This document shows, one piece after another, positions 7,168-45,232 of a stretch of 64,000 nt of DNA (position 1 is its first letter; each line of letters starts with the position of its first letter). The notes beneath the pieces are model-generated. The model saw only the letters and a list, made by a program, of their open reading frames with translations, had not been told where the DNA came from and did not search any database. The position numbers and the translations under genes are program-made. Source of the stretch: an uncultured Candidatus Sumerlaeota bacterium (GTDB lineage Bacteria > CAYMEV01); assembly GCA_964389675.1 (NCBI GenBank), contig CAYMEV010000002.1, positions 124,001 through 188,000 on the forward strand. Direction: 5' to 3'.

Positions 7168-10100
7168 ATGATGCATAATAAACCCAAACAGTTTCTTATT
7201 ATGTTGTTTTTTGCCCTTTTTATATTTTTTATCAGTATGACCGGATATTCTGATACGGAAATTGGAGATGAAATAGACTTCTATATTGGAAACTGGCATA
7301 TTTCAGGGGCGGTCACTGATATTGACATAAATATCACTGTTGACGGCTGGGTTGAAGTTGAGGGAGTCGGGATCCTGAGCCTTACAGGATTAAAAATATC
7401 AGCACTTGATTATATGAACAATGGTGATATCATAGTCACTGACAGTGGTACTGTAAGCCTTCAGAATGCAGTATTTGGAGGCTTAAATATTACTTTTATC
7501 AGCGGGCATATTGATTCTGGCCATATTTATGGAAATGCAGTCCTGAACACTTCCAATGGTGTATTGGATCTTACCTTTGATATAATGGCTGGCCAGAATT
7601 TCAGCTTTACTGTTGCTTCCAAGGATCTCCAGTTTGGAAACCTGGTCCTGACCGGTTTCTATGGAAATATTACCAGTCAGGGTTTCTTTGGAACAGGCTT
7701 TGTGAATATCAACGGGTATAATGCTCAGATCAATGTATTTTGCGATCAGGACAATACAATGTACGCTTCTATGGAACAGGGGAGCTTTAGCATATCTGGC
7801 ATTGCCTTTTCTAATGTCAGTCTTTACATAGATTCCCAGGGAAATGTCCAGGGCAGCGGCAATGCTTTAATACCAGCCTTCGGGGATAATATAGCAGTCA
7901 GTATTATTTTTGACAGCAGCAGATTTATTTTTAATTTTTCCCTTCCGCTTATAGACATAAACGGGATTTATTTTAGAAATATCTCTGGATCACTTACAAA
8001 CAATGAGATCCTGCTGAATGGGGAGATCTATTTTCCTCAGACAGATACTGCCTATGGGATCATGGGACTCATAATTGATAAAAATGGTAATATCATCGAT
8101 AGTCCAGTATTCTATTTTGAGAACCTGGCTGTCGGCGATATTCTGCTCAGTGGGCAGATGCGGATTACCGATGAAGGTTATCATATAATAACTGCTCAAG
8201 TGGCATTCTGTGATACTCTTTTGACAGTTACCAATATGAAGCTTTCAAGCAGTCTTGAGCTTCTGTATGCCGACAGTATCAGCCTTCAGAATCTTAGCAT
8301 AGGAGATCTTTTAATAAATGGGAGCGCTTCTCTGTCAGTCAGCCCGTTCCAGCTTGCTATCGATGGCCAGCTGTCACATCAGAACTGGAACATTTCTGTA
8401 ACAGCCTTTCACCTGGACCAGGATGGAAATATTTTAAGTTTCGGTTCTGCAACAGGCGAATTCAATATTGATGGTTATATTTTCACCTGCATTGTCCAGT
8501 TTGAGAACCAGAACCTGCTGGATTTCTTGCTGACCATAACAATCCCTTCTGTTACCATTGACGGGTGGACTCTGAAGACTGCACAGATAAGAATCTCAAG
8601 TGACGGATTCGAGATAGTCTCTGCACTGCTTTATTACATGGATGCAAGCCTTTCAGTCACCAATATGGTTTTTGACCACCAGTGGAATATAATCTCAATG
8701 GATAATATCTCAGTCAGTAATATTAATATCGGGCAGCTGACCTTTAACGGGAGTGCATATATTCAGTCCCAGCCCAGGGCTTTTGTGTTCTCTGGCAATA
8801 TTGGAAATCCTCCTTTCAGCATGATTTCTGTTGAGGAATTTCAAATGAATGAAAGCGGAGAGATAATGGATGCAGGAACTATTGGTGCTTCAGTAATACT
8901 GGGTGATCTTAGTTTCTATGGAATTGTTGAATTTGAAGGCAGCTCTGTATCAGATTATTTGCTGGTAATGTCCTCCGATGAAATTGTTTTGGGTGATATC
9001 ATAATATATAATTTTGAGGGCAGCATTTCCTCTGCAGGATTTGCCGGGACAGGCAGGCTTGTATTCAACAGCAGTGATTATATGGTCATAAATTTCGCTG
9101 TTTCTGATGAGGGAATATTTACAGGAGGGATCACTGACGGTTCCATTACACTGGGATCTGTCCTTATAAACAATATAAATATCAGTATAGATAAGCAGGG
9201 CCTTGTCTTTGCATCAGCACAGGGGACTTTTCCCTTTTTGACGGAATCAGTGCTTTCATTGGGATTTGAATTCTCACAATCAGGATATATTATATTGTCT
9301 GCTTCGGCAAGCCAGGTCAATCTGGACTATTTTATAATCCGGAATGTCAGTATCGTACTGGAGGATGATTTAATTGCCATATCAGGAAATGCTGAATTTA
9401 CTTCCCTGGGAGGTGCGTCAGCATATGTAAACAGGATTGTATTTAATATGAACGGTGAGTTCGTAAGCGCAGAATCTTTCGGGGTTGAGAACCTGCTGAT
9501 AAATGGCTTTTACGTAAGCGGTGAGGCAACTGTCAATGATCAGGGCATACTGATATCCATTGGTGCTATAAACCTGAACAATACAGGTTTTAGCATAACA
9601 AACCTGCTTCTTGGCTGGAATGGAGATGTCATAAGCATGGACAGTTTTGCTGTAAGCGGGCTTTCAATCGGCGATTTCAGCTTCAGCGGCTCAGCAGTAC
9701 TTGTAAATTATCCCGAAAGCCTGACCCTCAGCGGTTCAATAACATTAAACAGCCTGGGTTATATTTCTGTAACTAATCTCTATATGGATAGCCAGTGGAA
9801 TATTATATCTGTTGATCAGGCATCAGCTTCAATAAGCATCCAGGATGTATCCATATCTGGAGAAGCAGCACTGTTTAAGGATATGGTCTATATAAGCGGC
9901 AGTGCCTCATTGCCATTCTTAAACGGTCCAATTGCATTCATGGCAGATATTATTAAGTCTGAAGACGGAAGCGGCATTTTCAATTCGGGATATGATCTTA
10001 TTGCTGGAGGTGTAAGCATACCGGAATTTCAGGTTGGTGGCTACAGCATTTTGAATTCATCTATTTACTTTGATACTGAGGGCATTGAAGGCGAGGGTGG

Positions 10101-10794
10101 GCTGGTACTTCCGCAGACTGCCAGCATAATGGTAAAGTATAAGTTCGGATGGGATGGAACATTTTATCATACCTATATTGCAGCAACAGGCATGAATATC
10201 CCACTTGGAAATTCAGGCCTTTTTCTGCAGGGTGCCGGTGGCGGACTTTATCACTATACAAACCCTGAAGAATGGGTGGTAGAGCTCTATGGAATGCTGG
10301 GCGATGTAACTCAGACATTACAGGGCGATGTTCTCCTGTCTGTCAGCGACCTTGGCGTAGTATCCGGCGTTGGCGGGCTTTATATACGCGGTATTGCCAT
10401 GGGTATGGCTTCTTTTGAATTCAATAATCCCGGAGAGGTCTTTACATGCCAGGCATGGCTTGGAGAGGATCCCAATCAGGGTTTGGACATATATTTTGCA
10501 TCCCTGAAAGGAGCAGTAGGATTTCAGAAGAACTGGGGGTATCAGTTTACAAGGGGATATGGCTATATAAGTGTTAATATTTACTTTTTGCCAGTATTAA
10601 GCGGTAAAGCATTCCTCTCGGATAATGGCGGATACCCTTCAAGCTGCTTTTTGCCCAGAGACGGGCTTTCAGCAGGTATTGAGGTTGGATTCTGGAACTG
10701 GAAGAAGGTTTATGGAGCAAGGGTTCTCTGGGACCCGTGGGATCTGGATGCATTTGAATGTTCAGAATTTCCTGATTATAGTACTAATTATTAG
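7168..10794 (+). CDS. Large secreted all-beta repeat protein, function unknown
   Basis: N-terminal signal peptide; acidic and Gly/Ile/Ser/Phe-rich; alternating hydrophobic beta-strand pattern; internal repeats. Confidence 0.75.
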   Translation: MMHNKPKQFLIMLFFALFIFFISMTGYSDTEIGDEIDFYIGNWHISGAVTDIDINITVDGWVEVEGVGILSLTGLKISALDYMNNGDIIVTDSGTVSLQNAVFGGLNITFISGHIDSGHIYGNAVLNTSNGVLDLTFDIMAGQNFSFTVASKDLQFGNLVLTGFYGNITSQGFFGTGFVNINGYNAQINVFCDQDNTMYASMEQGSFSISGIAFSNVSLYIDSQGNVQGSGNALIPAFGDNIAVSIIFDSSRFIFNFSLPLIDINGIYFRNISGSLTNNEILLNGEIYFPQTDTAYGIMGLIIDKNGNIIDSPVFYFENLAVGDILLSGQMRITDEGYHIITAQVAFCDTLLTVTNMKLSSSLELLYADSISLQNLSIGDLLINGSASLSVSPFQLAIDGQLSHQNWNISVTAFHLDQDGNILSFGSATGEFNIDGYIFTCIVQFENQNLLDFLLTITIPSVTIDGWTLKTAQIRISSDGFEIVSALLYYMDASLSVTNMVFDHQWNIISMDNISVSNINIGQLTFNGSAYIQSQPRAFVFSGNIGNPPFSMISVEEFQMNESGEIMDAGTIGASVILGDLSFYGIVEFEGSSVSDYLLVMSSDEIVLGDIIIYNFEGSISSAGFAGTGRLVFNSSDYMVINFAVSDEGIFTGGITDGSITLGSVLINNINISIDKQGLVFASAQGTFPFLTESVLSLGFEFSQSGYIILSASASQVNLDYFIIRNVSIVLEDDLIAISGNAEFTSLGGASAYVNRIVFNMNGEFVSAESFGVENLLINGFYVSGEATVNDQGILISIGAINLNNTGFSITNLLLGWNGDVISMDSFAVSGLSIGDFSFSGSAVLVNYPESLTLSGSITLNSLGYISVTNLYMDSQWNIISVDQASASISIQDVSISGEAALFKDMVYISGSASLPFLNGPIAFMADIIKSEDGSGIFNSGYDLIAGGVSIPEFQVGGYSILNSSIYFDTEGIEGEGGLVLPQTASIMVKYKFGWDGTFYHTYIAATGMNIPLGNSGLFLQGAGGGLYHYTNPEEWVVELYGMLGDVTQTLQGDVLLSVSDLGVVSGVGGLYIRGIAMGMASFEFNNPGEVFTCQAWLGEDPNQGLDIYFASLKGAVGFQKNWGYQFTRGYGYISVNIYFLPVLSGKAFLSDNGGYPSSCFLPRDGLSAGIEVGFWNWKKVYGARVLWDPWDLDAFECSEFPDYSTNY

Positions 10795-10813
10795 GCAGTA
10801 AAGGAGAAAGATA

Positions 10814-11536
10814 ATGAGAAGGATAATATTATTCATTGCTGTATTTGCTTTTTCTATCAATTGTTTGTCTCAGGAGCTTGATTTTTTCAGCCCGGAGAGG
10901 ATTATGCCCGGTTATGAGGCCAGGTATTTAAAGACAGTCAACGAAGATGGCAGGGACTTGTTTTCAGGGATTATTTCAATTCAAAAGCTTGAAACCAGTG
11001 AAGATGATAATAAAGACCAAAGGTTTATTATAGGCTATATGGATAAGGGGTCAGCAAAAAAGATAGATGAATTCTTAATAACCTATGATAAAGCTGCAAA
11101 GCATATAGTCAAAGTCCAGCAGATCATAGACGGTATTGCTGTAGATATAGAGAAAGAAGACGGAATTAAAGAACCTTACCTTCTTATGCAGAAGGACAGC
11201 CTTGATAAGATCTCACCAAAGAGGGAGAAACTGTCAGAAGAGATTAAAATACTTGATATACTGGTTCCTGCTGAGCTGGATAAATATTCATATACACTGA
11301 AAAATGAAGTTAAAGACCCGAATAATCCATATCTGGTCCTCAGTGTTACATCCAGGATTGAAGAAAGGAAGTATACAGGCAGGCAAAAGGATCTTCCTCC
11401 ATTGCTGAGATATGAAAAGGAAACGGTTGTATCCAAAAGATTTGTCAATAAAAGGGATCCTGAAAGAAAATACCCAATGAACAGGGATATTCCAATGATA
11501 ACAGTGATTGAGCTTATTGAGTATAAGAGAAGGTAG
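10814..11536 (+). CDS. Secreted hypothetical protein
   Basis: AAGGAG RBS; signal peptide MRRIILFIAVFAFSINCLS; 19 bp after the upstream gene. Confidence 0.75.
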   Translation: MRRIILFIAVFAFSINCLSQELDFFSPERIMPGYEARYLKTVNEDGRDLFSGIISIQKLETSEDDNKDQRFIIGYMDKGSAKKIDEFLITYDKAAKHIVKVQQIIDGIAVDIEKEDGIKEPYLLMQKDSLDKISPKREKLSEEIKILDILVPAELDKYSYTLKNEVKDPNNPYLVLSVTSRIEERKYTGRQKDLPPLLRYEKETVVSKRFVNKRDPERKYPMNRDIPMITVIELIEYKRR

Positions 11537-11541
11537 TTTAA

Positions 11542-11572
11542 TTGCAGGGCTCCATATAGTGAAGCCCTGCAA
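11542..11572. terminator. Hairpin between convergent genes, probable terminator
   Basis: TTGCAGGGCT...AGCCCTGCAA, 10-bp stem; no strong U-tract. Confidence 0.55.
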
Positions 11573-11583
11573 GGCTGTTTGTA

Positions 11584-12663
11584 CTAACTTTTTTTCCTGA
11601 AATCTTTCATGAATCCTATGAGTTTTTCAACGCCATCAAGCGGGAAAGAATTATAGACAGATACCCTTATGCCTCCGACTGACCTGTGACCCTTCAGGCC
11701 CATCAGATCTATTTCGGAAGCTTCTTTTACAAACCGGGCTTCCAGATCCTCAGATGGCAATCTGAAGGTTATATTCATGACGGACCTTGAATCTTTTTCA
11801 GCATGTCCCCTGTAAAAATCAGGATAAAGGTCAATTGTGTCATAAACCAGTCCGGCTTTTTTGTTATTATTGCTTTCGATTGCGGACAATCCGCCATTAT
11901 CAAGCATCCAGGAAAGCACCTCATTGATTATATAAATGCCAAATACCGGAGGTGTATTGAATGTACTCTTTTTTTCAGAATGCGTCTTATAAAGTGTCAT
12001 TGTAGGATGATCAGATGAAGCTTTTTCAAGGAAACTCTTCTTAATAAATACTACAGTAACTCCTGCAGGGCCTATGTTTTTCTGTGCGCCTGCATAAATC
12101 AGGTCAAAATCAGTAAAGTTGATCCTTTTGCATAGTATATCAGAGCTCATATCGCATATCAGCGGGACACCCTTTATTCTGGGGTATTCTTTCCATTGGG
12201 TGCCGTATATGGTGTTATTTGATGTAACATGGAGATAAACTGGATTTGATGAAAAATTGTGTGTTTTTGGCAGATATGAAAAATTTTTATCTTCAGAGGA
12301 ACTTGCAACATTAACATTTCCAAAGAATTTTGCTTCTTTAATTGCCTTTTTTGCCCATGTGCCAGTATTTATATAATCAGCTGTCTGGTCTTTTGACAAA
12401 AAATTAAGGGGAATCAGGTAAAATTGTGTGCTTGCACCGCCTCCGAGGAATAATATGTCATAATCATCGCCAATGTTCATCAGGGTATGAAACCGTTCAA
12501 TGCACTCTTCATACATTTTGTTGAATTCTTTGCCCCTGTGGCTCATCTCAAGAACACCGATTCCGCTCTGTCTGAAATTTATGATATCTTCCCTTGCCTT
12601 CTCCAGTACCGGCAATGGCAATACTGCCGGACCCGGGGAAAAATTATATTTTCTGTTATACAT
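11584..12663 (-). CDS. serC: Phosphoserine aminotransferase
   Basis: YNFSPGPAVLP, EMSHR, DMSS, YAGAQKNIGPAG (PLP Lys), NTPP, KGHRSVGGIR. Confidence 0.96.
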   Translation of the reverse strand: MYNRKYNFSPGPAVLPLPVLEKAREDIINFRQSGIGVLEMSHRGKEFNKMYEECIERFHTLMNIGDDYDILFLGGGASTQFYLIPLNFLSKDQTADYINTGTWAKKAIKEAKFFGNVNVASSSEDKNFSYLPKTHNFSSNPVYLHVTSNNTIYGTQWKEYPRIKGVPLICDMSSDILCKRINFTDFDLIYAGAQKNIGPAGVTVVFIKKSFLEKASSDHPTMTLYKTHSEKKSTFNTPPVFGIYIINEVLSWMLDNGGLSAIESNNNKKAGLVYDTIDLYPDFYRGHAEKDSRSVMNITFRLPSEDLEARFVKEASEIDLMGLKGHRSVGGIRVSVYNSFPLDGVEKLIGFMKDFRKKS

Positions 12664-12737
12664 AAATACCTCCTTTTATGATGAACTTTATACATATAGT
12701 CTAATATTTGCCAATTTAATCAAGAAAAATAAAATAC

Positions 12738-12765
12738 TTGAATTTGAACGCTTTGCACATATAAT
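12738..12765 (+). promoter_or_regulatory. Candidate sigma70 promoter of the tmk operon
   Basis: TTGAAT-N16-TATAAT, ending 12 bp before the tmk ATG. Confidence 0.45.
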
Positions 12766-12777
12766 GCTTTTGTTATT

Positions 12778-13419
12778 ATGAGTAAGAATAGAGGAAGACT
12801 AATTACATTTGAAGGTCTTGACGGTTCAGGCAAGACAACACAGATAAGGCTTTTGTCAGCCTTCCTGTCAGAAAATAAAATAAATTGCACCCTTGCCCGT
12901 GAACCGGGAGGAACTGCTGCAGGGGACAGGATAAGGGATATACTGATAAGCAGTGATCACAAGCTCTGCAGAGAGACGGAGCTTCTGCTGATAGAGGCAT
13001 CAAGAGCACAGATTGTGCAGGAGGTTCTACTGCCGGAACTGGAAAAGGGAAAATGGGTGCTGCTGGACAGGTATTATGATGCTACAATTGCATACCAGGC
13101 ATTCGGCAGGGGAGTTGATATTGAGATATGCAACTGCCTTAACAGCTTTACTACATTCGGCATTGAGCCTGATATGACATTTCTGCTTGCTATTGATCCT
13201 GTTGAGGGCTTGAGAAGGAAAAAAAATCAGTTTGAGGATATGCTGGACAGGTTTGAAAATGAATCATATGAGTTTTTCAGGAAAGTATCAGAAGGATATG
13301 ACTATATTATGGCTGCTAACAGACACAGGGTTGTGCAGATATGTGGTTCAGATCCTGCTGATAAAATTGCTCAAATTATAAAAGGCCATATATTAAGGCT
13401 TATTGAAGGTAAGAAATGA
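12778..13419 (+). CDS. tmk: Thymidylate kinase
   Basis: FEGLDGSGKTTQ, REPGG, DRY, AYQ, DRFE. Confidence 0.96.
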   Translation: MSKNRGRLITFEGLDGSGKTTQIRLLSAFLSENKINCTLAREPGGTAAGDRIRDILISSDHKLCRETELLLIEASRAQIVQEVLLPELEKGKWVLLDRYYDATIAYQAFGRGVDIEICNCLNSFTTFGIEPDMTFLLAIDPVEGLRRKKNQFEDMLDRFENESYEFFRKVSEGYDYIMAANRHRVVQICGSDPADKIAQIIKGHILRLIEGKK

Positions 13420-14336
13420 AATTGTTCAGCAGTATTACAGGGCACGAATATCAGAAAAAGCTGCTGACACAGCTTTTGAAGTCAGGAAGGGTGCCCCATC
13501 TGATGCTTTTTTCCGGCCCTGAATCAATAGGGAAATTTGAGATGGCAGTTGAATTTGCCAAAGCTCTTCTCTGTAAAGAGGAAGAATTCTACTGCGGCAA
13601 TTGTGAAATATGCAGACAGCAGTTTGATATTCACGTTATTGAGAGAGACGGCAGTTATATCAAAATAAACCAGCTGAGAGAGATGCAGTCCATTGCCGAA
13701 GAGGGGCCATTCAGGGCTGACAGGGTCATCTTTCTTATAAGGGATGCAGAATATATGAATGAAGAGGCAATGAATTCTTCATTAAGGATATTTGAAGAAC
13801 CTTATCCTGACGTGAATATCATATTAATAACCCAGAACAAGACAAAACTTTTGCAGACAATTATTTCCAGGTGTTTTGAAATAGATTTTTATCATCTCAG
13901 GGAGAAAGAGATCATAAGTATCCTCAAGGAAAAAATGGGTTTCAGTGATGAAAAGACAGGCGAATATATAAATATTTCAGAAAGCTCACTGGAATTTGTC
14001 AGTGCCGTTGATTCAGAACTGTTTAAGAAGCTTTACGAAGATGGAACCTACAGGATATATAGCATGCTGATAAATGACTGCACTATATTAAACATCACCA
14101 GGGTCCTGGATATTATCAGCAGAAAGGATATATTGCTTTTTTTCAGGCTTTTTATAGGCTATTTAGAAAAAAACATGAATAATCTTATTAATCTGCTGAA
14201 GGACAGGTATAATCATTTAATGAAGCTTGTAATAAGCCATATGGAGATGTATACTTCATATAACCTTAACGAAACAGTATTTCTGGAATCATTTTTATTA
14301 AGACTGAAAGGGGTTTTAGAGAATAGCCATGATTGA
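13416..14336 (+). CDS. holB: DNA polymerase III subunit delta'
   Basis: HLMLFSGPESIGK, Zn motif C..CGNCEIC, EEP, TIISRC; conserved position after tmk. Confidence 0.9.
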   Translation: MKLFSSITGHEYQKKLLTQLLKSGRVPHLMLFSGPESIGKFEMAVEFAKALLCKEEEFYCGNCEICRQQFDIHVIERDGSYIKINQLREMQSIAEEGPFRADRVIFLIRDAEYMNEEAMNSSLRIFEEPYPDVNIILITQNKTKLLQTIISRCFEIDFYHLREKEIISILKEKMGFSDEKTGEYINISESSLEFVSAVDSELFKKLYEDGTYRIYSMLINDCTILNITRVLDIISRKDILLFFRLFIGYLEKNMNNLINLLKDRYNHLMKLVISHMEMYTSYNLNETVFLESFLLRLKGVLENSHD

Positions 14337-15459
14337 GAAGGATAAATGTTATAATACCTATCTGTTTTATTTTCAGCAGCTTGGAAAATGCTATCCATAT
14401 CAGATAGAAAAAAATGATATTGATATTAAGGTTGGAGATTTTGTTATACTGGATACTGAAAAGGGGATTGAGTATTCCATAACAAAAAAGGTCTATCTTG
14501 ATAATAAGAAAAGAAGCAGCTTTTATATCAAGAATTTTCTCAGGAAAGCAAGTGATGAAGATCTTGATACTATCAAAAAGATCGAATCTCTTGAAAAGGA
14601 AGCATATCAGCTCTGTAAATCAAAGGGATATGAGCTTAACCTTCAGATGAAGCTGATAAAAGTCAAATATCTTTTTGATTTTTCAAAGGTTATCTTCTAT
14701 TTTACCGCCAACGGGAGGATAGATTTCCGCGAGCTTGTCAAGCAGCTTGCCTTTAAGCTTAAAACAAGGATTGAAATGAGGCAGATAGGTATAAGGGACG
14801 AGGCTAAGATATTAGGGGGGCTGGGTATCTGTGGCCAGCATACCTGCTGTAACCTTTTTATGTCGAGGTTTGACCCTGTTTCACTGAAAATGGCCCGGGA
14901 CCAGAATCTGTCATGCAACCCTTCAAGGATAAGCGGTGTTTGCGGAAGATTAATGTGCTGTATGTTCTATGAATATTCTACCTATCTTGATCTGAAAAAG
15001 GAATTTCCCAGGGTAGGATATAAAATCCATCATTCTGACGGGATAGCTGAAGTTACAGCGGTAAACTATATATCCAAGAAAGTATGGGTAAGATTCAGCA
15101 AAGATGGCAAGGAAATTATTATGGACCTTGATTCAATCAGGGAACTGAACTGGGAATCAACAGAAGAGATTTCAGAAGAGCCTTGCGATGAGGAGGAAAT
15201 GGAATACCCGGATAATATTCCATACAGGAACAGCAATGATTCATTGCCTGCAGAGGAAAGCAAGCCTTTTCCCGAAAGCTCTCCCGGCGGTAATAAAAAT
15301 CCGCAGAGTGCCAAAATACCACACTCTGAAAAAGACAATGAATCAAAGAAAACTGGCAAAAAGACGGAAAAAAAGCAGGTTTTTTACAGTAAGACCGCCA
15401 AAAAGCTTGCAGAAAAATCCTATTCCAAGAGGCCTTTCAAGGTACCCAAGCGAAAATAG
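14329..15459 (+). CDS. ricT: PSP1-domain protein (YaaT/RicT family) with low-complexity charged C-tail
   Basis: FYFTANGRIDFRELVK, RIEMRQIG, GICG..CC, SGVCGRLMCC; tmk-holB-PSP1 synteny. Confidence 0.88.
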   Translation: MIEKDKCYNTYLFYFQQLGKCYPYQIEKNDIDIKVGDFVILDTEKGIEYSITKKVYLDNKKRSSFYIKNFLRKASDEDLDTIKKIESLEKEAYQLCKSKGYELNLQMKLIKVKYLFDFSKVIFYFTANGRIDFRELVKQLAFKLKTRIEMRQIGIRDEAKILGGLGICGQHTCCNLFMSRFDPVSLKMARDQNLSCNPSRISGVCGRLMCCMFYEYSTYLDLKKEFPRVGYKIHHSDGIAEVTAVNYISKKVWVRFSKDGKEIIMDLDSIRELNWESTEEISEEPCDEEEMEYPDNIPYRNSNDSLPAEESKPFPESSPGGNKNPQSAKIPHSEKDNESKKTGKKTEKKQVFYSKTAKKLAEKSYSKRPFKVPKRK

Positions 15460-15467
15460 CCTGATAG

Positions 15468-17165
15468 ATGGAAGATTTTTATTTATATATTAAAAATGTG
15501 CTTGAAAAACTGCTTGTATTAATAGAACCTTTTGAAAATAGCCGTCCTGCAAGAATAAAATATGCTGTTATCAGAATTCAGAAAGCCTGTTCAGCAAGAT
15601 CATCAAAAAGATATATCGAACCAGTCAGTTTTAAGAGAAATTCACCTGCATTATTCTTCCTGGTCAGGTTATTTTCATATATTAACCAGTATATTGATTT
15701 TTATGACAGGAATGACAGAAAAATATCTGTGGATGCTTTGAAAATCAGGAATAACAGTCAATGGATTACCGAAACTGCAGTAGGGCCGAATGATGTAATG
15801 GCATATATATCTGGTAAATGCGGTATTAAGTGTGACTTTTGCTATCTTAAGGGCAATCCTGATTTTATGAACAGGCTGAACAGGGGTATTAGTGAAGATG
15901 AGATCCTGTACAGGCTTGAATTGTTCAAGCATGGAAAATGCTTCACGCAGAGAAATATACTTTCTACCGATGAACAGACTACACATCCCTTGTTCCTGTC
16001 CGCTCTTAAGGGGATAAGAGAAAAGAACAGGGCTCCTGTATACATAGAGACCAATGGAGTTAATCTTACTGAGGATATGATAAAATCTATAAAAAAACTG
16101 GGCAGGATCCACCTTAATGTGTCTGTTAATATCCTGACTGAGGAGCTCAGGAAAAGCATTCTTTGCGATAAAAAACCGGACAGGATAAGAAAAAACCTGA
16201 GACTGCTGTCTGAAAATGAGATCCCGTATTCAGTCAGCATTGTCCCCTGGCACACAGTGCCGGAAGAAGAGACAGCCAAGATTGCAGAATTTTGCTCGGA
16301 TATTAATGTAAATCACATTCTTATCAGGCTTCCGGGTTATACATCCTTTTATTCCAGGAGAAAACTGTATGATCTTGATGAGCTCTGGTCAAAAAATATA
16401 GATATTGCAGAGGATATCAGAAACAGGTTCCAAATTCCGGTTATCGTGCAGCCAAGCAAGTATGAACAGCTTCGTGCGGATAAATACTGGGAATATCCCT
16501 TTGTCCTTGGTATTATTAAAAATTCACCTGCATCAAGGAGCGGATTAAAGTATTCTGATCATATATTGAGAATTAACGGGCAGAGGATGCTCTGGAGAAA
16601 CGAGGCTATAAAATCCCTGCTCATGCACCATATTAATGAAAGTGATATTAATCTCAGAATTCTCAGGGACGGGGTTCAATCAGATATCAGAGTTAAATAC
16701 GGTTCAGGGTCATATCCTTATGATGTCTCGGATTACAGGTGCCCCTACGGGATATATTCATCAGATGATATAGATTACAAGAGCCTGATCTATATGAAAA
16801 ATTTAATCTCTGTCCTCAATCCCCAAAATGCTGTCCTGATAACTTCAAAACTCATGCTGAAGTCCTATAAAAAGCTGGTCGAGCTCTTTAATCTGAAAAA
16901 GGATTTTGAAAATCTAAAACCACATATAGTACCGAATCTGTATTTTGGCGGAAATGTTTTTATGGGCGATCTGCTGGTAGTCAGTGATATTATTGATTAT
17001 CTGGACTCATTGCACAGACAGGGGAAAGATATCGATGCTGTCCTTATTCCTTCAAGCATGTTCAATGAATATGGAAATGACCTTCTGGGAAGATGCTATA
17101 AGGAGATAGAATATATTACCGGAAGAAAAGTTTTCCTGATTCCCGCCCATATTATTTCTCTTTAG
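15468..17165 (+). CDS. Radical SAM protein with internal PDZ domain and C-terminal DUF512-like domain
   Basis: CGIKCDFC (CxxxCxxC), ETNG; PDZ-like NSPASRSGLKYSDHILRING; DUF512-like NLYFGGNVFMGDLL...VLIP. Confidence 0.8.
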   Translation: MEDFYLYIKNVLEKLLVLIEPFENSRPARIKYAVIRIQKACSARSSKRYIEPVSFKRNSPALFFLVRLFSYINQYIDFYDRNDRKISVDALKIRNNSQWITETAVGPNDVMAYISGKCGIKCDFCYLKGNPDFMNRLNRGISEDEILYRLELFKHGKCFTQRNILSTDEQTTHPLFLSALKGIREKNRAPVYIETNGVNLTEDMIKSIKKLGRIHLNVSVNILTEELRKSILCDKKPDRIRKNLRLLSENEIPYSVSIVPWHTVPEEETAKIAEFCSDINVNHILIRLPGYTSFYSRRKLYDLDELWSKNIDIAEDIRNRFQIPVIVQPSKYEQLRADKYWEYPFVLGIIKNSPASRSGLKYSDHILRINGQRMLWRNEAIKSLLMHHINESDINLRILRDGVQSDIRVKYGSGSYPYDVSDYRCPYGIYSSDDIDYKSLIYMKNLISVLNPQNAVLITSKLMLKSYKKLVELFNLKKDFENLKPHIVPNLYFGGNVFMGDLLVVSDIIDYLDSLHRQGKDIDAVLIPSSMFNEYGNDLLGRCYKEIEYITGRKVFLIPAHIISL

Positions 17166-17367
17166 CTGAGTCATACAGGCTAATTACACGGTTTTCCCCT
17201 ATCAGCCTGAATCCATCGATAGCAATCTCTTCGCCCTTAAATGTCAGGATTACGAGGTCTAATAAGGCTCTTAGGTTCTCCTTTATAAGCTCAAGCCTAG
17301 GATCCCCGTCTCTGACAGTCTTTTCATCAGGTTCTTCAAGATTAATTATAAATTTATAATCTTGCAT
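17152..17367 (-). CDS. Small hypothetical protein (71 aa)
   Basis: AAAGGAG RBS upstream of the ATG; normal globular composition; divergent from the peptide gene. Confidence 0.65.
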   Translation of the reverse strand: MQDYKFIINLEEPDEKTVRDGDPRLELIKENLRALLDLVILTFKGEEIAIDGFRLIGENRVISLYDSAKEK

Positions 17368-17461
17368 TACTTACTCCTTTAGATTTTCAGATCATGCATA
17401 ATAACCGACTTAATTATTCTATGCACAAAAAAAAAAAAATAAATAAAAATCCTTTTTTTAT

Positions 17462-17491
17462 TTGACAAACGGTAATAATTGAATGTATATA
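17462..17491 (+). promoter_or_regulatory. Candidate sigma70 promoter for the peptide gene
   Basis: Perfect TTGACA at 17462, TATATA 18 bp downstream, A/T tracts upstream. A second TTGACA lies at 17600. Confidence 0.45.
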
Positions 17492-17685
17492 GTATTATTA
17501 AGAACGGAGAGTTGTATAAGGATGATTGCATATAAAGAAGTATTAGCAGATATAAAAAAAAATAATTCTCAGTTTTTTATAAAATTATGAATATTTTTTT
17601 TGACATTTTTTATAATTTAAGTAAATATGGTAACAATATTAATTAGAATAAAAAAAAACAAATGTGAAAATAAAAGGAGGTTACA

Positions 17686-17901
17686 ATGAAACATTACACA
17701 AGACCAGTTATCGTAAGTCAGAAGAGTTTTGAGACATCAGCACTTGCTTGTATTAAGACACCAGGTGGCGGAAGTATGCATGCTGGAGCAGGAACAACAT
17801 ATATTACAGGTTCCGGAGACATCGGAAATGGAACATTCCATCTCAACACTGGTTACTCATCAACATCATTACCATGTGACTACTTGCTGAACGTTTCATA
17901 A
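17686..17901 (+). CDS. Putative RiPP precursor peptide (71 aa)
   Basis: AGGAGG RBS; leader MKHYTRPVIVSQKSFETSALA with YxxP motif; Gly/Ser/Thr-rich core with Cys22 and Cys64; C-terminal Ser; own terminator; flanked by a kinase and a nucleotidyltransferase. Confidence 0.8.
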   Translation: MKHYTRPVIVSQKSFETSALACIKTPGGGSMHAGAGTTYITGSGDIGNGTFHLNTGYSSTSLPCDYLLNVS

Positions 17902-17918
17902 GTTTTAGATTTCCACAG

Positions 17919-17951
17919 AAAAGGGCCTTTTATTAAAGGCCCTTTTTTTTT
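17919..17951. terminator. Strong intrinsic (bidirectional) terminator after the peptide gene
   Basis: AAAAGGGCCTTT-TATT-AAAGGCCCTTTT followed by a T-run. Confidence 0.9.
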
Positions 17952-17970
17952 GCTTTATCCTTTATCCTTA

Positions 17971-18756
17971 TTATACTATATCAAACACACTCCTGTCCTT
18001 TTTAAAATAAAGGTCATAAAATGCCACTTTTGTTACTAAATCATGTGCCAGAGCCAGCAGTCTTGCATGAAGGCTTTTCTCCTTGCCAAAGAACAGGATG
18101 TTCGGCATCAGCCTGTTAAGTGCAGAACCGGGCTTTAAGATGATTTTTTTGTTGTTTTCATGCTTGTTCAGAAAATATACAGATCTTATTAAAGCTCTGT
18201 CATTAACACCTCCAAATGCAAATTTGCTCATGAACGGAGTGCCGAATGAATAGTAGCTGCCCCTGAATTTCCTTATTGCTACAATCTCATCCGAAAGTAT
18301 GGTAAAATTGTCTCCAAGCTCTGCAATGGTGCTTTTTCCCGACCCTGATTCACCTGTAAATATATAAGCGCTATCATCCCTTTTTATGGAACTCGAATGC
18401 AGCAGGAAGCCATCCAGTTCTATAATAAGGAATACCGAAAAAAATACTCTCAGAAAAGAATCCAGAGAATGTATATTGGGAAAGATGGTGAAAAAACCTT
18501 TTCCTTTAGATAAATCAAAGCTGCCTGAAAGGTCTGGTTTCTCGATATGAATGATCCCTTCCGAAATCTCATAGGAAGGTTCTGCATCGGATCCTGAGCT
18601 ATCGACCTCATACTTGTAGCATATATTGATTAGATAATCAAAACTGCTTTCCTCTGAGATAAATGATTCATATTTTGCAAAAACGCTTTTATGTATATCA
18701 AATTCGAATTCAAATTTTATCTTTATACTGCATATATCCAGGATAATCTCTTTCAT
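17971..18756 (-). CDS. HPr-kinase-related P-loop kinase (ScmC/PadeK-like)
   Basis: GFLLHSSSI, FTGESGSGKST, LSDE, GTPF motifs. Start placed at the second Met (MKEIIL) behind a GGAAAGG RBS; the ORF extends to 18798. Confidence 0.82.
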   Translation of the reverse strand: MKEIILDICSIKIKFEFEFDIHKSVFAKYESFISEESSFDYLINICYKYEVDSSGSDAEPSYEISEGIIHIEKPDLSGSFDLSKGKGFFTIFPNIHSLDSFLRVFFSVFLIIELDGFLLHSSSIKRDDSAYIFTGESGSGKSTIAELGDNFTILSDEIVAIRKFRGSYYSFGTPFMSKFAFGGVNDRALIRSVYFLNKHENNKKIILKPGSALNRLMPNILFFGKEKSLHARLLALAHDLVTKVAFYDLYFKKDRSVFDIV

Positions 18757-18899
18757 AAAATGGCCTTTCCCGTATAAATATTTTTTCCTGTTTAGCATAT
18801 TTTACCCGGAGTTGTCAAACCATATTTTGTCAGTGAGCAACCCGGCATTATTTTCTTGACTTAAAAACCCTATGATATTTACTAAGAGACCTATAAAGC

Positions 18900-20189
18900 A
18901 TGGATATGATTAATAAGACTGAATACTTTAAAACCTCTGAAGAAAAATTCTCATTTATTTCTCTTTTTTATGATAAAATAGACGTTCATATGGAATTACT
19001 GGAGAAATATTCCAGAACAATAGACTGGCGTCATATGTTCGCAATAGGCATTAAAAACCATCTGTTCGGTTTTTACTACAGAGTTTTAAAGAATATCAAT
19101 ACCGGCTGTATTCCAAAGGATTTCTTCGAGGGGTGTAGAAACCATTTCTTCTTCAATGATGCAAAAATAAGAATATATTTCAGGGAAATACAGAAATTTA
19201 ATGAACTCATGGGCAATTGCAAAATAAATTATGTCATGACACGAGGTTATGTCTATTATTATCTTCTCTACAATAAGCTTCCTGTCAGGGAATTTAATGA
19301 TATTGACATATATGTGAGGAAGGAGGATGTCAGAGAAGTGATCAGATGCCTGGTCAGCGCAGGGTATATTAACCCTGGCGAAAAGAAAATAAGATACTTC
19401 CTTAAGCATCACATTCATATCCGGGTAGAAAATCCTGTAAACAAGATCGTATTTGAAGTACATTGGGCAGTAGACCATAATTATAATCTTATCGATATAC
19501 CGGTGGATGACCTGCTGAATTCTAAAGTAAAGGTAATTATTGAGGGTTCTGAGATTTCTGTCCCTTCATTAGAGAGGGATTTTCTAATAAGTGCTGTCCA
19601 TGCACTGAAGCATTCACCTCTATTAAAGTATTCACAATGCAAAAGCGATTTTTTTGAAATGCTCTTCAAGAACAGCTCTGCAGTGAAATACCTGGATCTG
19701 TATAGAATTATCAAGCTGCACGGTGATTCTATTGACTGGCAGCTCTTAATCAGAATTTCAAAGGACTGTTATTGCGACGATTACCTCCATGTAGTCCTGT
19801 CGCTCCTGAAATATGTTTTTGATGCTCCTGTAAAAGATGAAATTCTGGATAAGCTCTCTGGATATTCTCCTGGTTTTCTTGAGAAAACTACAGCTAAATA
19901 CCTTATTAGCCGGTCAGATACATTCAGCAGAAATAATGGATTTTTGAATAAAGCTGCTGCAAAGATTATTAACAGCTGTAAAAACAGCCTTATATTTAAT
20001 CCGGTCAGATTTATCGATCTTTTCAGGTATCTGATTCCGCCATCAAGATATATGGCTTACCTGAAAAAAAAGAATGTCAGTCTGCTTAAAAGAAACAGGA
20101 TATATCTCTTTTTAAGGGGAATTATGCACCTGTTCAGAAACCTGATTGATGCAATGATCGGCCATCAGGACTTATTATTCGATGATTGA
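18900..20189 (+). CDS. Nucleotidyltransferase family protein (NTP_transf_5-like)
   Basis: RG...LY....REFNDIDIYV, FEVHW, H(ALK)H and YLDL..I...IDW motifs. Confidence 0.82.
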   Translation: MDMINKTEYFKTSEEKFSFISLFYDKIDVHMELLEKYSRTIDWRHMFAIGIKNHLFGFYYRVLKNINTGCIPKDFFEGCRNHFFFNDAKIRIYFREIQKFNELMGNCKINYVMTRGYVYYYLLYNKLPVREFNDIDIYVRKEDVREVIRCLVSAGYINPGEKKIRYFLKHHIHIRVENPVNKIVFEVHWAVDHNYNLIDIPVDDLLNSKVKVIIEGSEISVPSLERDFLISAVHALKHSPLLKYSQCKSDFFEMLFKNSSAVKYLDLYRIIKLHGDSIDWQLLIRISKDCYCDDYLHVVLSLLKYVFDAPVKDEILDKLSGYSPGFLEKTTAKYLISRSDTFSRNNGFLNKAAAKIINSCKNSLIFNPVRFIDLFRYLIPPSRYMAYLKKKNVSLLKRNRIYLFLRGIMHLFRNLIDAMIGHQDLLFDD

Positions 20190-20353
20190 TTTTCCTTTTC
20201 ATCATCGTCGGTCTTTTTTCCTTTCAAAGCATCCTTAAAGTTCATTATTCCTCTTCCTAACCCCGCTCCGATCTGAGGGATCTTCTTAGGCCCAAAAATT
20301 AACAGAGCAATTATAAGAATGATAATAATCTCTGCAGCGCCAGGAGTCCACAT
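20165..20353 (-). CDS. tatA: Twin-arginine translocase subunit TatA
   Basis: EIIIILIIALLIFGPKKIPQIGAGLGRGIMNFK. Confidence 0.93.
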   Translation of the reverse strand: MWTPGAAEIIIILIIALLIFGPKKIPQIGAGLGRGIMNFKDALKGKKTDDDEKENQSSNNKS

Positions 20354-20420: not shown

Positions 20421-22778
20421 ATGTTTTTTTTTAAGAGTTATTTTAAATATCTGTTCCCATTAGTATTTGCAATCATTTTTATTCTTGCAATCCACACATT
20501 TTTTATTAATGAAGCTAAAGTAATAAGGTCATATTCAGAAGAAAACTATCAGGATGTGATTAATCTGCTTGAAAAGAAAGAAAATTCAGTTCTCAAGGAT
20601 AAAGACCTTAGCTATATGTATGTAAAATCTTTATTAAAATTGGGAAAAACCGATGAAGCCGTGCATTTCCTTAACAGATACAGGAAATCCGGGGATAATG
20701 ATGAGCAGATGGACTATTTATACAGGATAAGCAAGATACTTGATATCTGCAGTTACTACATTAAGCAGAAGGGTATACTGAAAACAATAAGGGCTTATCA
20801 GATAGAGCCTGTCATCAATGATAATTATAATGATATTCTTGAATTTTACAGGATATCCAGCATGGTTGAAAGCTCCAATCAGCTTTTTCTGCATAACAGG
20901 AACATAATAATATCTAATACAATCAGCATTTCCGAAAATAGAACGGAGCTTATGCTGGACCTGCTTTCACTGGATTATCCTGAGCTTCTTAATATTGTTC
21001 TTTCCAATATTAAGCATGATGAGATCGGCTTCTTTTCAGAGCAGATATCAGAGATCCATGACAGTGGAAGGGATGTGGACAAGACATTATTATTGGAGCT
21101 TATTAAGAATATAAAAGGGTACGATATACAGAAGCTTATTAAAAAGGCTGCTGATGAAAATGCAGAAGATCCTGAAATGCTTTCATCCCTGGCCAAAATA
21201 ATGGCAGGCCTTGACTATGGATTTGTCAAAAAGTATATAGACATCTTTATATCAAGTGTGGATATAAGGCTTAAGTCTGCAGGAATTATACTCCTGAGAC
21301 ATTATATTCCTGAGAATGGTGAGGCTTTTGATTTATTTGTAAAGCTTCTTTCAAATAGTGAATATGATCCTGTTTTATTCGGATTATACAGGACGATTCT
21401 GGTTAATCTGGAAGAAGAAGCAAGACTATTGATATTAAAAAAATGGGAAAGCCTTCATGAAGATATTAAAGAGGTCTTTGCCCTTCTTTCTGTTATCGGC
21501 AAAGACAGGTCCGCTACTGATTATATAAGGAGGGAAAAGGGACTAAAGTGGAGGCTTTGGGAACAATTGACAGGAAATAACGGGCTGGAATCCACTGAGG
21601 CAATATCTGGAGAGAATGAAGAAATCCAGGTTGTGTTCCTGATATCGATCGATACGCTCAGAAGGGACCATCTGGAGCTTTATGGTTATAAGAGGAATAC
21701 ATTTCCAAGAATAACGGAAATTGCAAAAAGACGGGGATTGGTATTTTCAAATTTTTATTCTAACAGCTCCTGGACTCTGCCCTCACATGTATCAATGCTT
21801 TCAGGACTATCGCCTGTAGATCATGGTATAAATGGTTTGAATGACATTATAGACGAAAATGAAAACTGCATTTCAGGCTTTTTAAAAGAGAGGGGATTTA
21901 TAACTCTTGCATTTGTGACACATTCATTTGTTTCGCAGAAACATAATTTTCATAAGGGGTTTGATTTTTTCTATTACAACCAGGAAGAGGATTCAGCTTT
22001 AATCATTCAGAAAGCAGAGTCTGTAATGGACTATATTATTAAAAATGGCTTATCCCGGAAGCTGTTTGTATTTATTCACATTTATGACTGTCACAGCCCC
22101 TATACGCCCGTAGATAAGTTCGATATATTTAAATCATTACCGCCACATTTTATTAAGGACAATGAATATATAAACGGTCAGCAGAACCTGTATGACGGTG
22201 AGATATTATATGTTGACAGCAATTTGTCCAGTTTAATGGCTAAAATGGATAATATTTCTGAAGCAGTATATTTCATCAGTTCTGATCATGGAGAGGAATT
22301 TCTTGAGCACAAGGGTGTGCTGCATGGGACCACGCTTTACCGGGAAGTCGTTGAAGTTCCTTTTATAGTTATTGGAAACACCGAATATACATCTGGCCTG
22401 GCGCAATACAAGGATATGTTCCTGGTGAACCAGGATACGCCATTCCTCATCTTAAAAGCACTTGATGTTGAGCAGGACACTTTCCTGCTTTCAGAAGATA
22501 CTGTAGAGATGTTGCTGTTTAACGGTAATATTGCTAAATACTCATATATTGAAGACTATAAAAAGCTGTATTATGATATTTCAAGGGATAAATTCTCTGT
22601 TTTTGATTTAAGGAAGGACATTATGGAACTAAAGCCGATAAATATTGAGAAATACCCTAAAATGAAAGAAAAGGCCGTGAACAGAATGGAAGCATATATA
22701 GAGACCGAACTTCCAGTACAGCTTGAAATGACTGAAGAACAGCTTGAAATGCTGAAAGCACTTGGATACATAAGCTAA
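20421..22778 (+). CDS. Membrane-anchored TPR/HEAT-like + sulfatase/alkaline-phosphatase superfamily protein
   Basis: N-terminal TM; helical repeats; ISIDTLRRDHL, WTLPSH, HSPY, YDGEI, SDHGEEF, HG, C-terminal LKALGY. Confidence 0.85.
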   Translation: MFFFKSYFKYLFPLVFAIIFILAIHTFFINEAKVIRSYSEENYQDVINLLEKKENSVLKDKDLSYMYVKSLLKLGKTDEAVHFLNRYRKSGDNDEQMDYLYRISKILDICSYYIKQKGILKTIRAYQIEPVINDNYNDILEFYRISSMVESSNQLFLHNRNIIISNTISISENRTELMLDLLSLDYPELLNIVLSNIKHDEIGFFSEQISEIHDSGRDVDKTLLLELIKNIKGYDIQKLIKKAADENAEDPEMLSSLAKIMAGLDYGFVKKYIDIFISSVDIRLKSAGIILLRHYIPENGEAFDLFVKLLSNSEYDPVLFGLYRTILVNLEEEARLLILKKWESLHEDIKEVFALLSVIGKDRSATDYIRREKGLKWRLWEQLTGNNGLESTEAISGENEEIQVVFLISIDTLRRDHLELYGYKRNTFPRITEIAKRRGLVFSNFYSNSSWTLPSHVSMLSGLSPVDHGINGLNDIIDENENCISGFLKERGFITLAFVTHSFVSQKHNFHKGFDFFYYNQEEDSALIIQKAESVMDYIIKNGLSRKLFVFIHIYDCHSPYTPVDKFDIFKSLPPHFIKDNEYINGQQNLYDGEILYVDSNLSSLMAKMDNISEAVYFISSDHGEEFLEHKGVLHGTTLYREVVEVPFIVIGNTEYTSGLAQYKDMFLVNQDTPFLILKALDVEQDTFLLSEDTVEMLLFNGNIAKYSYIEDYKKLYYDISRDKFSVFDLRKDIMELKPINIEKYPKMKEKAVNRMEAYIETELPVQLEMTEEQLEMLKALGYIS

Positions 22779-43846: not shown

Positions 43847-45202
43847 TCAGGGGTTCAATAGTTCTTTTTCTGATACAGGCCTTAATGATGCGCTGTAAAT
43901 GTCCTTTATAAATACCGCTGCTGATAAGACTATCAGTGGGTCGAAAGGGATTCTGAACCTTGTATCTGAATTCAGTAATACAGATGTCAGATAAAATGAG
44001 AGAAGTATTATATTTATAAAAACCAGCCTTTTCTTGAGTATATTAATTACTGAGACACAGACAGCCCCTGATAACAGCATCAGTGATAAAAAAGGGCTGA
44101 GAAATCCTCTGGCAGGGATTTTGAATAAAATGGATGCCCTTATAAGCGTCATATTCAGATAATTGACCGGGTCTTTTAATATAATGCCTGCAAGGTGTTT
44201 TTTTATTTCATTCTGGCGGGATACTTCGCTATATCCCTTGATATCCGGAAAATCATAGAGATATTCTCTTTTTAATGCATGATGCAGTGCCATGTCCTCA
44301 AGGGGATTCAGCTCCTTTTTGTCCTGATAGAGAAAAACGGGATTATTCCTTGCCCAGAGTGTTATCGCCCCTTTTGTAGGAAATACGACAATTGAATTAA
44401 AAACATAGTAGTTTCTTATGACCCATGGAGCAGTGAACAGGCATATTATGACCAGTATGACTGCCAGGTATCTCTTTCTGTTCCTGCAGTATCTAAATAA
44501 TACAGCAGGGAAAAGGATAAATATGCTCTGGGATTTAGTGAGAAAAGCAAATGATGCCAGTAATCCAATGATCAAGGATGTTCTTAAGTGGCTGCTTTTA
44601 ACTTCATGAGACTCAAGGGCAAAAACAGCCAAGCTGATAATAAATAAAAACAGTGTTTCAGACATTATTTTCTGGTTATAAATCATGTTTAAAGGCAGGA
44701 ACGCGATGAAAGTCCATACAAGCAGCAGGGATTGCCTGGAGTGGAAATAAGACTTTGAAAGCCTGATAAGGAAAAGCATGGCAAAAAAATAAAGCAGTGA
44801 GTTCATTAATTTTATCAGTATTATCTGCCTTGACAGTGCTCCCAGCAGGCTTATAATTATCGGGAACAGGGGTTCCCAGAATGCAGTCTTTGAACCGGTT
44901 TTTACTGTAGCCCTGAAATAATCATCTTTTATATCAGCTGTCCCTACAGTCTCTGAAAATGCTTTTCCCTTGTCAGACATATCTTTTTCAGAAACCTTTA
45001 TATCAGGCATTATAAATTCTTTGTGCTTTATTATATTATTCCTGAGGCTAATATATATAAGCTGGTCCTCAACCGGGAAAACCAGGCTGTTGGCTGATAA
45101 AATATTTATAAATAAGCTGACAGCGAGAAGCAGGGCCAAAAAACAGCAGGAAAAATTATCTTGTTGATTTTGCATGATATAAGCATTATATTTTATTTTC
45201 AT
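43847..45202 (-). CDS. ArnT/PMT-like (GT-C) membrane glycosyltransferase
   Basis: Polytopic; PLFP, MSETLF, PWVIRNY, RFRIPF motifs; true start uncertain (alternative Met at 45175). Confidence 0.72.
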   Translation of the reverse strand: MKIKYNAYIMQNQQDNFSCCFLALLLAVSLFINILSANSLVFPVEDQLIYISLRNNIIKHKEFIMPDIKVSEKDMSDKGKAFSETVGTADIKDDYFRATVKTGSKTAFWEPLFPIIISLLGALSRQIILIKLMNSLLYFFAMLFLIRLSKSYFHSRQSLLLVWTFIAFLPLNMIYNQKIMSETLFLFIISLAVFALESHEVKSSHLRTSLIIGLLASFAFLTKSQSIFILFPAVLFRYCRNRKRYLAVILVIICLFTAPWVIRNYYVFNSIVVFPTKGAITLWARNNPVFLYQDKKELNPLEDMALHHALKREYLYDFPDIKGYSEVSRQNEIKKHLAGIILKDPVNYLNMTLIRASILFKIPARGFLSPFLSLMLLSGAVCVSVINILKKRLVFINIILLSFYLTSVLLNSDTRFRIPFDPLIVLSAAVFIKDIYSASLRPVSEKELLNP

Positions 45203-45232
45203 GAAAATAAAAAGGAATTTGATAATTGCCCT

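Follow-up and report, generated by a model that had tools for sequence, protein, structure and literature searches.

The 64,000-nucleotide stretch analysed here (the window) lies on contig C2 of an uncultured Candidatus Sumerlaeota genome (G000) and carries a 71-residue peptide gene that we interpret as the precursor gene of a peptide that is made on the ribosome and modified after translation (RiPP). It is accompanied by genes for a kinase-like protein of the HprK/PEPCK fold and for a nucleotidyltransferase-like protein of the NTP_transf_5 family (Table 1). Contig C22 of the same genome holds a cassette with another such kinase gene and genes for a PqqD protein, a radical S-adenosylmethionine (rSAM) enzyme with a SPASM domain, and a signal-peptidase-I-like (SPase-I-like, S26) protein. 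Both loci are kept in the sister species (G001). We consider it probable that the window peptide is its genome's single member of a cross-phylum RiPP family, which joins rSAM/SPASM enzymes to a chemistry like that of the linear polyphosphorylated peptides (LPPs) known from Bacillota, and that this peptide is matured in trans.

Table 1. Features of the precursor locus (window coordinates) and of the C22 cassette of G000 (C22 positions); RRE, RiPP recognition element
Feature	Positions	Strand	Remarks
rSAM-PDZ-DUF512 gene	15468-17165		
Small conserved open reading frame (ORF), 71 residues	17152-17367	-	no family match; kept in G001
5' untranslated stretch	17651-17685	+	holds AGGAGG; longest RNA-library contig starts at 17651
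Ribosome-binding site AGGAGG	17675-17680		5 nt upstream of precursor ATG
Precursor peptide gene	17686-17901	+	71 residues + stop; MKHYTRPVIVSQKSFETSALAC...LLNVS-stop
Predicted leader, residues 1-17	17686-17736	+	Y4-x-x-P7-x-I9 RRE-binding motif, F15-E16-T17; predicted cut after T17
Predicted 54-residue core, S18-S71	17737-17898	+	invariant in alignment A2: A19, L20, C22, K24, H32, G42, S59, C64, S71
Terminator-like hairpin	17917-17948	.	14-pair stem, 5 GC, loop of 4, T run; lies where the peptide and kinase genes converge
HprK/PEPCK-fold P-loop kinase-like protein, 275 residues	17971-18798	-	convergent with peptide gene; NCBIfam and AF2/Foldseek
NTP_transf_5 nucleotidyltransferase-like protein, 429 residues	18900-20189	+	PF14907, E 4.5e-28; divergent from kinase
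tatA	20165-20353	-	overlaps 3' end of NTP_transf_5 gene (20189) by 25 nt
TPR-sulfatase gene	20421-22778		
C22 kinase	44657-45484		cassette without precursor
C22 PqqD			
C22 rSAM/SPASM	45845-46939		
C22 S26 peptidase	46949-47539		
C22 sulfatase			

The initial annotation had described a 71-residue ORF with an AGGAGG ribosome-binding site, a strong terminator and a Gly/Ser/Thr-rich core ending in LLNVS, followed by genes for an HPr-kinase-like P-loop protein and an NTP_transf_5-type nucleotidyltransferase, and all of these assignments stand. Glycine, serine and threonine make up 24 of the 54 residues of the predicted core, and the peptide has no signal peptide. The hairpin behind the gene is flanked by an A run before and a T run after and could act in both directions; terminator-like sites number five in the region, against 1.9 +/- 1.4 in shuffled sequences. 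The further claim of an own promoter region rests on the 318-bp AT-rich spacer that precedes the gene and on the RNA-library contigs described below; a scan of the region for sigma-70-type promoters found 16 sites against 13.7 +/- 3.7, which is no excess over chance.

The precursor ORF is no chance frame: a word-indexed search found four other homologs at 72 to 83% identity and more distant relatives occur in many genomes. When 1.84 billion representatives were searched with a profile, nine matched at E <= 1e-3; the best of them, P0004, is one of the close 71-residue homologs. Seven sequences were fetched, among which P0006, P0007 and P0011 are new full-length family members, all ending in serine; the others include a fragment of 46 residues (P0012) and two long repeat proteins (P0008 and P0010), and P0009 was left out. 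A search of PDB with the peptide profile gave nothing meaningful, and ESM Atlas returned only hypothetical clusters with scores below 0.9. In an alignment of 14 sequences (A2), Y4, P7, F15, T17 and S18 are invariant, besides the core positions of Table 1, and I9 and E16 are nearly so (at least 90%); in alignment A3, Y4, P7 and T17 are invariant and E16 nearly. The core in A2 is conserved, not hypervariable. Across phyla, the leader of the family reads Y-x-x-P-x-[IV]...[FI]-E-T-x-A-L-x-C-x-K.

The family comprises long and short forms. The long forms have 70 to 90 residues, two cysteines and a long Gly-rich insert, which the short peptides of the cassettes lack. A whole-genome search of 26 genomes of the phylum of G015 gave precursor-profile matches in six; the short forms of this phylum have 46 to 51 residues, follow the pattern KKYxKPxIxSEKIIETAALSCGKC...NCGIxPxRS, and end in serine in six of six cases. 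The leader occurs once in the whole genome of G000. In a domain-wide sample, 16 of 401 genomes gave a total of 27 matches.

Judging from these sequences, the terminal serine is the most conserved feature across the precursor family. It is present in 14 of the 14 sequences of A2 and, with frames read without a filter on the last residue, in 25 of the 27 matches of the 401-genome sample, which upholds the conservation of this residue that the initial annotation implied. The search did not impose it, because in 23 of the 27 cases the match stopped before the model's C-terminal end, and 21 of these 23 still end in serine. The residue before it varies. As background, 6.0% of 2,585 ORFs in G000 end in serine; the corresponding binomial value of 9e-29 overstates the significance, as the matches are partly related. 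One of the two exceptions, from G234, is a weak match and probably spurious.

On the high-GC metagenome contig L004 (9678-11433), six tandem precursor paralogs of 88 to 91 residues, all Ser-ended, lie between a gene for an MscS/cNMP channel and one for a giant S8 protease (a 2,113-residue S8 subtilase). On L052 of G347 (7987-18168), a long-form peptide is found among genes for a kinase, an extracytoplasmic function (ECF) sigma factor, a zf-HC2 anti-sigma factor, an HtrA-like protease and a C25 peptidase. By eye, the neighbours in G195, of the same family as G347, look similar, without a kinase in the stretch fetched.

The kinase-like protein of the window matches NCBIfam models only weakly (ScmC, 25.2 bits against a cut-off of 125; HprK_rel_A, 22.5 bits against 200) and reaches no HprK/P family model, so that its likeness to HprK/P proper is one of fold only. 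Sequence matches of the kinase profile in PDB were also weak (PEPCK, 0.025; HprK, 0.41), and a fold search was needed. The AF2 model (pLDDT 87.5) matched ATP-PEPCK at E 3e-9 and the HprK/P structures 1knx and 1ko7 at 2e-5 and 4e-5 in Foldseek. The Walker A motif is intact (G149-ESGSG-K155-ST), and an alignment of 11 homologs keeps it together with the invariant H134 and L168-S-D170-E. The latter stands where the lasso-peptide kinase PsmK has its metal-binding DD pair, and PsmK D158A/D159A is inactive (PMC6993621). A complex prediction for the window kinase and the precursor scored 0.01 against a mark of 0.32, which gives no verdict for or against binding.

The precursor and such kinases occur together far beyond this genome, as the initial annotation had supposed. 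Matches to the kinase profile are found in 79 of the 401 genomes: in all 16 peptide-positive genomes and in 63 of the 385 peptide-negative ones. There are four kinase paralogs in G000, each with an ortholog in G001. Orthologs of the window kinase adjoin long-form peptides in G001 and L003 (clade support 100/99); in L003 the upstream gene is a different one. A kinase is adjacent to the precursor in G347 as well.

The nucleotidyltransferase-like protein has a weak Pfam match to Aminoglyc_resit and a DxD motif at D134/D136, and it is the only full copy in G000. A tblastn search with it found no foreign copy. A hidden Markov model built from eight PF14907 seeds located copies inside the cassettes of three unrelated genomes: next to PqqD in G168, directly after the rSAM gene in G297, and fused to the S26 peptidase in G133. 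PF14907 is present in five of five peptide genomes tested and in two of 14 control genomes. At the window locus itself, the link between NTP_transf_5 and the precursor is suggestive and falls short of proof. The fusion protein of G133 (L056, 4237-5898) has 553 residues and recalls the B2-nucleotidyltransferase fusions reported for lasso clusters (PMC8498205).

Elsewhere, the genes that recur around the peptide encode an HprK-like kinase, PqqD, rSAM/SPASM and an S26 protein, and the leader motif is common to peptides embedded in such cassettes in at least 10 unrelated genomes. The complete set of four enzymes surrounds the peptide in G015, G078, G079 and G075. The four enzyme genes all occur in G085 too, that for S26 at a greater distance, and G074 has PqqD and rSAM on a contig that starts just upstream of the PqqD gene. 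Among 20 further loci fetched, an rSAM gene is present in 10 and a kinase gene in six within the stretch. Eight of the 20 are without cassette genes (two long-form loci of G195, three of G144, two of G197, and G050), as is L004. Precursors dispersed in this manner are found in G144, with seven copies, and in G195. The claim of a RiPP-type precursor is supported.

In the C22 cassette of G000, the rSAM and peptidase genes stand only 9 bp apart. This is where the precursor lies in other genomes, and it leaves no room for one. The PqqD gene of this cassette is the only discrete one of G000, the other PqqD match lying inside an rSAM/SPASM gene on contig C7; its product matches LppB (9X8Z, E 0.2) and PbaB1 (9X90, E 0.032) weakly. 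The rSAM/SPASM protein is homologous to thioether maturases (AlbA, 116 bits; StsB, 105; PapB, 71), with all scores below the family cut-offs. A system without an RRE or radical SAM enzyme is not supported, as G000 has this cassette and the same leader stands inside such cassettes in other phyla. The absence of a lasso cyclase is upheld across the genome (93.8% complete): PF13471, the B2 transglutaminase-type peptidase, has 0 matches, and the one full Asn synthase is an ordinary AsnB, which passes TIGR01536 but scores too low for the lasso-cyclase model NF033535 (221 bits against 525).

The metatranscriptome data consist of one contig at >=99% identity in each of three runs from a single marine-sediment study. 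They span 17651-17924 (X4, the longest), 17671-17864 and 17684-17907, so that two of the three end at or just before the hairpin. Within the 3.3 kb queried, this cover is limited to the peptide gene, from just upstream of the ribosome-binding site to the hairpin. The flanks have cover in a DNA run (X2). Cover confined to the precursor gene is what would be expected of a short, comparatively abundant message, and contigs can neither prove transcription nor map transcript ends. That the kinase and NTP_transf_5 genes have no cover in the RNA runs says nothing about their expression.

The closest characterised systems are the LPPs, linear, non-lasso RiPPs of Bacillota with the genes LppA/K/B/S/D/N (Popov et al., Nat Commun 2026;17:6633, May 2026; PMC13381572). 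The LPP leader logo is YxxPxVLxHQxIxFETxxS. Cleavage after T-1 by the SPase-I-like LppS needs F-3, E-2, T-1 and the RRE, and because of this requirement we predict a cut after T17 in the window peptide. LppK places up to four phosphates on core Ser3 only, and S3A/T/Y abolish the reaction; an NTP transferase is a core gene of LPP clusters. The window precursor would also be a non-lasso RiPP, with a Y-x-x-P-x-hydrophobic leader followed by F-E-T at the predicted cut, and its system has this leader logic and four enzyme types in common with the LPPs. Kinase and NTP transferase genes stand in the window, although the main text of the LPP paper does not state that LppN is a PF14907 member.

In the window peptide, the spacing from Y to FET is two residues shorter, and the core begins S-A-L-A-C, with leucine at position 3, where LPPs have the phospho-acceptor serine; short forms read ET-A-A-L-S. 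The window family has invariant cysteines and a C-terminal serine that is invariant in A2, and its cassettes add rSAM/SPASM. Two contigs share the genes, those for PqqD and S26 being on C22 and not in the window. Neither locus has an MsbA-like exporter gene beside it, a statement that covers these two loci and not the whole genome. The authors call LPPs restricted to Bacillota, whereas the window family occurs in many non-Bacillota lineages, and the words "radical" and "SPASM" have 0 occurrences in the main text of their paper.

Lasso systems with HPr-kinase homologs (paeninodin, PadeK; pseudomycoidin, PsmK and PsmN) resemble the window system in their Ser-ended precursor, YxxP leader and kinase (PMC8498205, PMC6993621). 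Their kinases phosphorylate the linear precursor on its C-terminal serine and are largely indifferent to the remaining sequence (PMC8498205), and PsmN adds one or two hexoses to the phosphate on that serine, D134A/D136A being dead (PMC6993621). They also have an "uncharacterised NTP transferase" weakly like a 2''-aminoglycoside nucleotidyltransferase, which parallels the Aminoglyc_resit match of the window protein; its DxD falls at D134/D136 as well, and the window kinase has an acidic pair. In contrast, G000 has neither a lasso cyclase nor a B2 transglutaminase-type peptidase and has a predicted leader peptidase of the S26 type instead, and the 54-residue window core has no ring-forming Asp/Glu at positions 7-9.

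Two further groups bear comparison. SynChlorMet (TIGR04248-TIGR04251: ScmC, ScmD, ScmE, ScmF) likewise has the HprK-like ScmC, a PqqD homolog and rSAM/SPASM, and ScmC is the best NCBIfam match of both the window and the C22 kinase. However, the scores are far under the cut-offs (ScmC, 25.2 and 31.9 against 125; ScmE, 141.7 against 400; ScmD, 26.8 against 100), the cassette here has a single rSAM where SynChlorMet has two, and it includes an S26 peptidase. SynChlorMet is defined in databases only, with no paper found in the literature searched; for a cassette of kinase, rSAM/SPASM and PqqD, that literature likewise gave no paper among the matches listed. Sactipeptide and ranthipeptide systems (AlbA, PapB, StsB) have homologous rSAM/SPASM enzymes, invariant precursor cysteines and an RRE-type leader, but no kinase, SPase-I-like peptidase or NTP_transf_5, according to the papers searched.

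Judged by its predicted genes, the locus is a real candidate for an LPP-like system of a variant kind, linked to a radical SAM enzyme. Most simply read, the window gene would be the source of the substrate on which the C22 cassette acts, because G000 has one leader match and one precursor-less cassette. The precursor would be transcribed as its own short message ending at the hairpin, and its leader would be bound at Y4xxP7xI9 by the C22 PqqD. The C22 rSAM/SPASM enzyme would then use the invariant Cys22 and/or Cys64 to cross-link the core, thioethers being the likeliest links. An HprK-like kinase would phosphorylate a serine, with the window paralog as the best candidate enzyme and Ser71, as in paeninodin-type lasso precursors, as the most likely site. 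The adjacent NTP_transf_5 may decorate the phosphate, by analogy with hexose addition by PsmN, and the C22 SPase-I-like peptidase would cut after F15-E16-T17 to release the 54-residue core. Except for the RNA-library cover of the precursor gene, which was observed, these six steps are inferred throughout. A more specific version, in which the long forms are a distinct class, cross-linked in trans, (poly)phosphorylated at the C-terminal serine by a dedicated kinase paralog and capped by NTP_transf_5, with the gene apparently among the better-represented transcripts of this rare bacterium in marine sediment, we put forward tentatively and on balance doubt; it would be a hybrid of radical-SAM and LPP chemistry that is as yet undescribed.

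Several points weigh against maturation in trans as just set out. The window holds no RRE, rSAM/SPASM or leader peptidase gene, the precursor is not encoded inside its own genome's cassette, and the likely use of C22 is deduced from the pairing of one precursor with one precursor-less cassette. The genes of the locus alternate in strand and are not one operon. NTP_transf_5 stands beside a long-form precursor only in G000 and G001; because the synteny of these two genomes includes the housekeeping flanks (tmk-holB-ricT-rSAM on one side, tatA-sulfatase on the other), the adjacency of precursor, kinase and NTP_transf_5 within the genus carries little weight. The kinase tree has no resolved clade specific to long-form peptides. 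Neither the six copies on L004 (19.8 kb fetched) nor the two long-form loci of G195 have a kinase, rSAM or NTP_transf_5 gene in the stretches fetched. P0013 carries the leader and ends in valine, and the cassette peptide of G122 ends in Gly-Gly. Among the LPPs, the closest characterised relatives, the kinase targets core Ser3 instead of a C-terminal serine; in the long forms of the window family, Ser18 follows FET directly and is invariant. LppN had no detectable effect in the study of Popov et al. (PMC13381572). The RNA contigs come from one study only.

An alternative, close to the view of the initial annotation, is a stand-alone system of the LPP type, with a linear product made by the adjacent kinase and NTP_transf_5 only, the C22 rSAM uninvolved and the C22 RRE and peptidase perhaps borrowed. 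Precursor, kinase and NTP_transf_5 do lie together, away from the rSAM/SPASM gene, LPPs are described as exactly such linear products (PMC13381572), the long forms have only two cysteines besides their Gly-rich insert, and in L003 and G347 a kinase without an rSAM gene is found beside the long form. Yet both cysteines are invariant in 14 of 14 long forms, that of A-L-x-C is invariant across long and short forms alike, and NNMF[AT]S long forms stand directly beside rSAM genes in G195 and G347. This reading would also leave the C22 cassette without a substrate, as no other matching leader was found in G000, and we consider it unlikely. Far less probable still is a small protein that undergoes no modification, such as a secreted or structural peptide, whose neighbours reflect inherited gene order. 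Such a protein would suit the conserved core, a synteny that makes adjacency prove little, and the complex prediction that gave no verdict. It is difficult to square with a leader common to the peptides of PqqD/rSAM/kinase/peptidase cassettes, with a kinase that stays beside the peptide in L003 despite a different upstream gene and accompanies it in every peptide-positive genome, or with the lack of a signal peptide and a terminal serine that is invariant while the preceding residue varies. Probability not assigned to trans maturation or to these alternatives is left to readings that we do not name.

The site of phosphorylation is a separate matter that overlaps these readings. Within the RiPP readings, we judge Ser71 the likelier site, because the terminal serine is the feature that the entire family conserves; with the LPP precedent behind it, Ser18 stays live as a distinctly less probable one. 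If the kinase targeted Ser18 in FET-S, as LppK does core Ser3 of FETxxS, the terminal serine might be an acceptor of the rSAM cross-link, an export or recognition signal, or the site of another paralog. The invariance of Ser18 in 14 of 14 long forms agrees with this, and the four kinase paralogs of G000, each kept in G001, make two sites conceivable. Across the family, however, no fixed serine follows E-T/E-K (short forms have ET-AAL-S, G144 has FEK-TAL-x-C and G297 has FET-TAL-A-C), the terminal serine is nearly universal, and lasso-type kinases recognise specifically a C-terminal serine (PMC8498205).

If maturation in trans by an rSAM-coupled system is right, the kinase/SPase-I/NTP-transferase logic of the Bacillota LPPs is one branch of a wider, multi-phylum, rSAM-coupled family. 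The near-universal C-terminal serine would then be a simple handle for genome mining. The idea of a non-lasso RiPP with kinase and NTP transferase has itself been in print since May 2026: linear peptides of this kind with a YxxP...FET leader were published as LPPs, and the possibly undescribed class proposed in the initial annotation is not supported (PMC13381572). What remains new here is the link between LPP-like and rSAM systems, the subclass of long-form precursors, the division of the genes between distant loci, and the cover of the precursor gene by in-situ RNA libraries. The window offers a clear case in which a precursor and a kinase/transferase pair have their genes apart from a core cassette that lacks a precursor, a link that cluster-based miners such as RODEO or antiSMASH would miss. 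It also poses the question of whether the kinase site is the C-terminal serine, as in lasso peptides, or a serine near the cleavage site, as in LPPs.

Other genes near the precursor were considered as members of the system. The small ORF upstream is probably outside it; as a hidden RRE it was rejected, having no family match and being absent beside peptides elsewhere, a judgement made without fold prediction. It has a paralog (35% identity) on contig C25 of G000 (L104, 201-3789), where it follows an 891-residue gene that by eye resembles cyanophycin synthetase, and both copies lie near paralogous rSAM-PDZ-DUF512 genes. PDZ domains bind C-termini, the reason for which the rSAM-PDZ-DUF512 gene of the window was considered as a maturase; it was rejected, since it overlaps the string of genes tmk-holB-ricT and does not accompany peptides elsewhere. 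Its ortholog in G001 (L001, 2423-4124) is split into two frames near 2779, by a frameshift or an assembly error. The TPR-sulfatase gene came into question as C22 also has a sulfatase; with more than 10 paralogs in G000, no reciprocal best match and no counterpart in the foreign loci, it was not retained. The position of tatA beside the locus is treated as coincidental.

The genome has other features of interest. On contig C7 (L074, 1-1400), a membrane protein has some ten ACHS/CHSAC repeats at its end, and directly downstream (L074, 1258-2814) lies the gene for a 518-residue rSAM/SPASM protein that starts with a PqqD-like domain. G000 thus has a second RiPP-like locus, unrelated to the precursor. 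G000 also encodes 13 Peptidase_C25 (gingipain-like) proteins, on contigs C1, C4, C6, C10, C29, C30, C38 and C50, compared with none in any of 14 control genomes. None of these genes adjoins the window locus or the C22 cassette; in G347, a 1,600-residue C25 peptidase adjoins the long-form precursor on L052. The GTDB set searched holds two genomes of this phylum, G000 and G001, which represent a sparsely sampled marine-sediment lineage.

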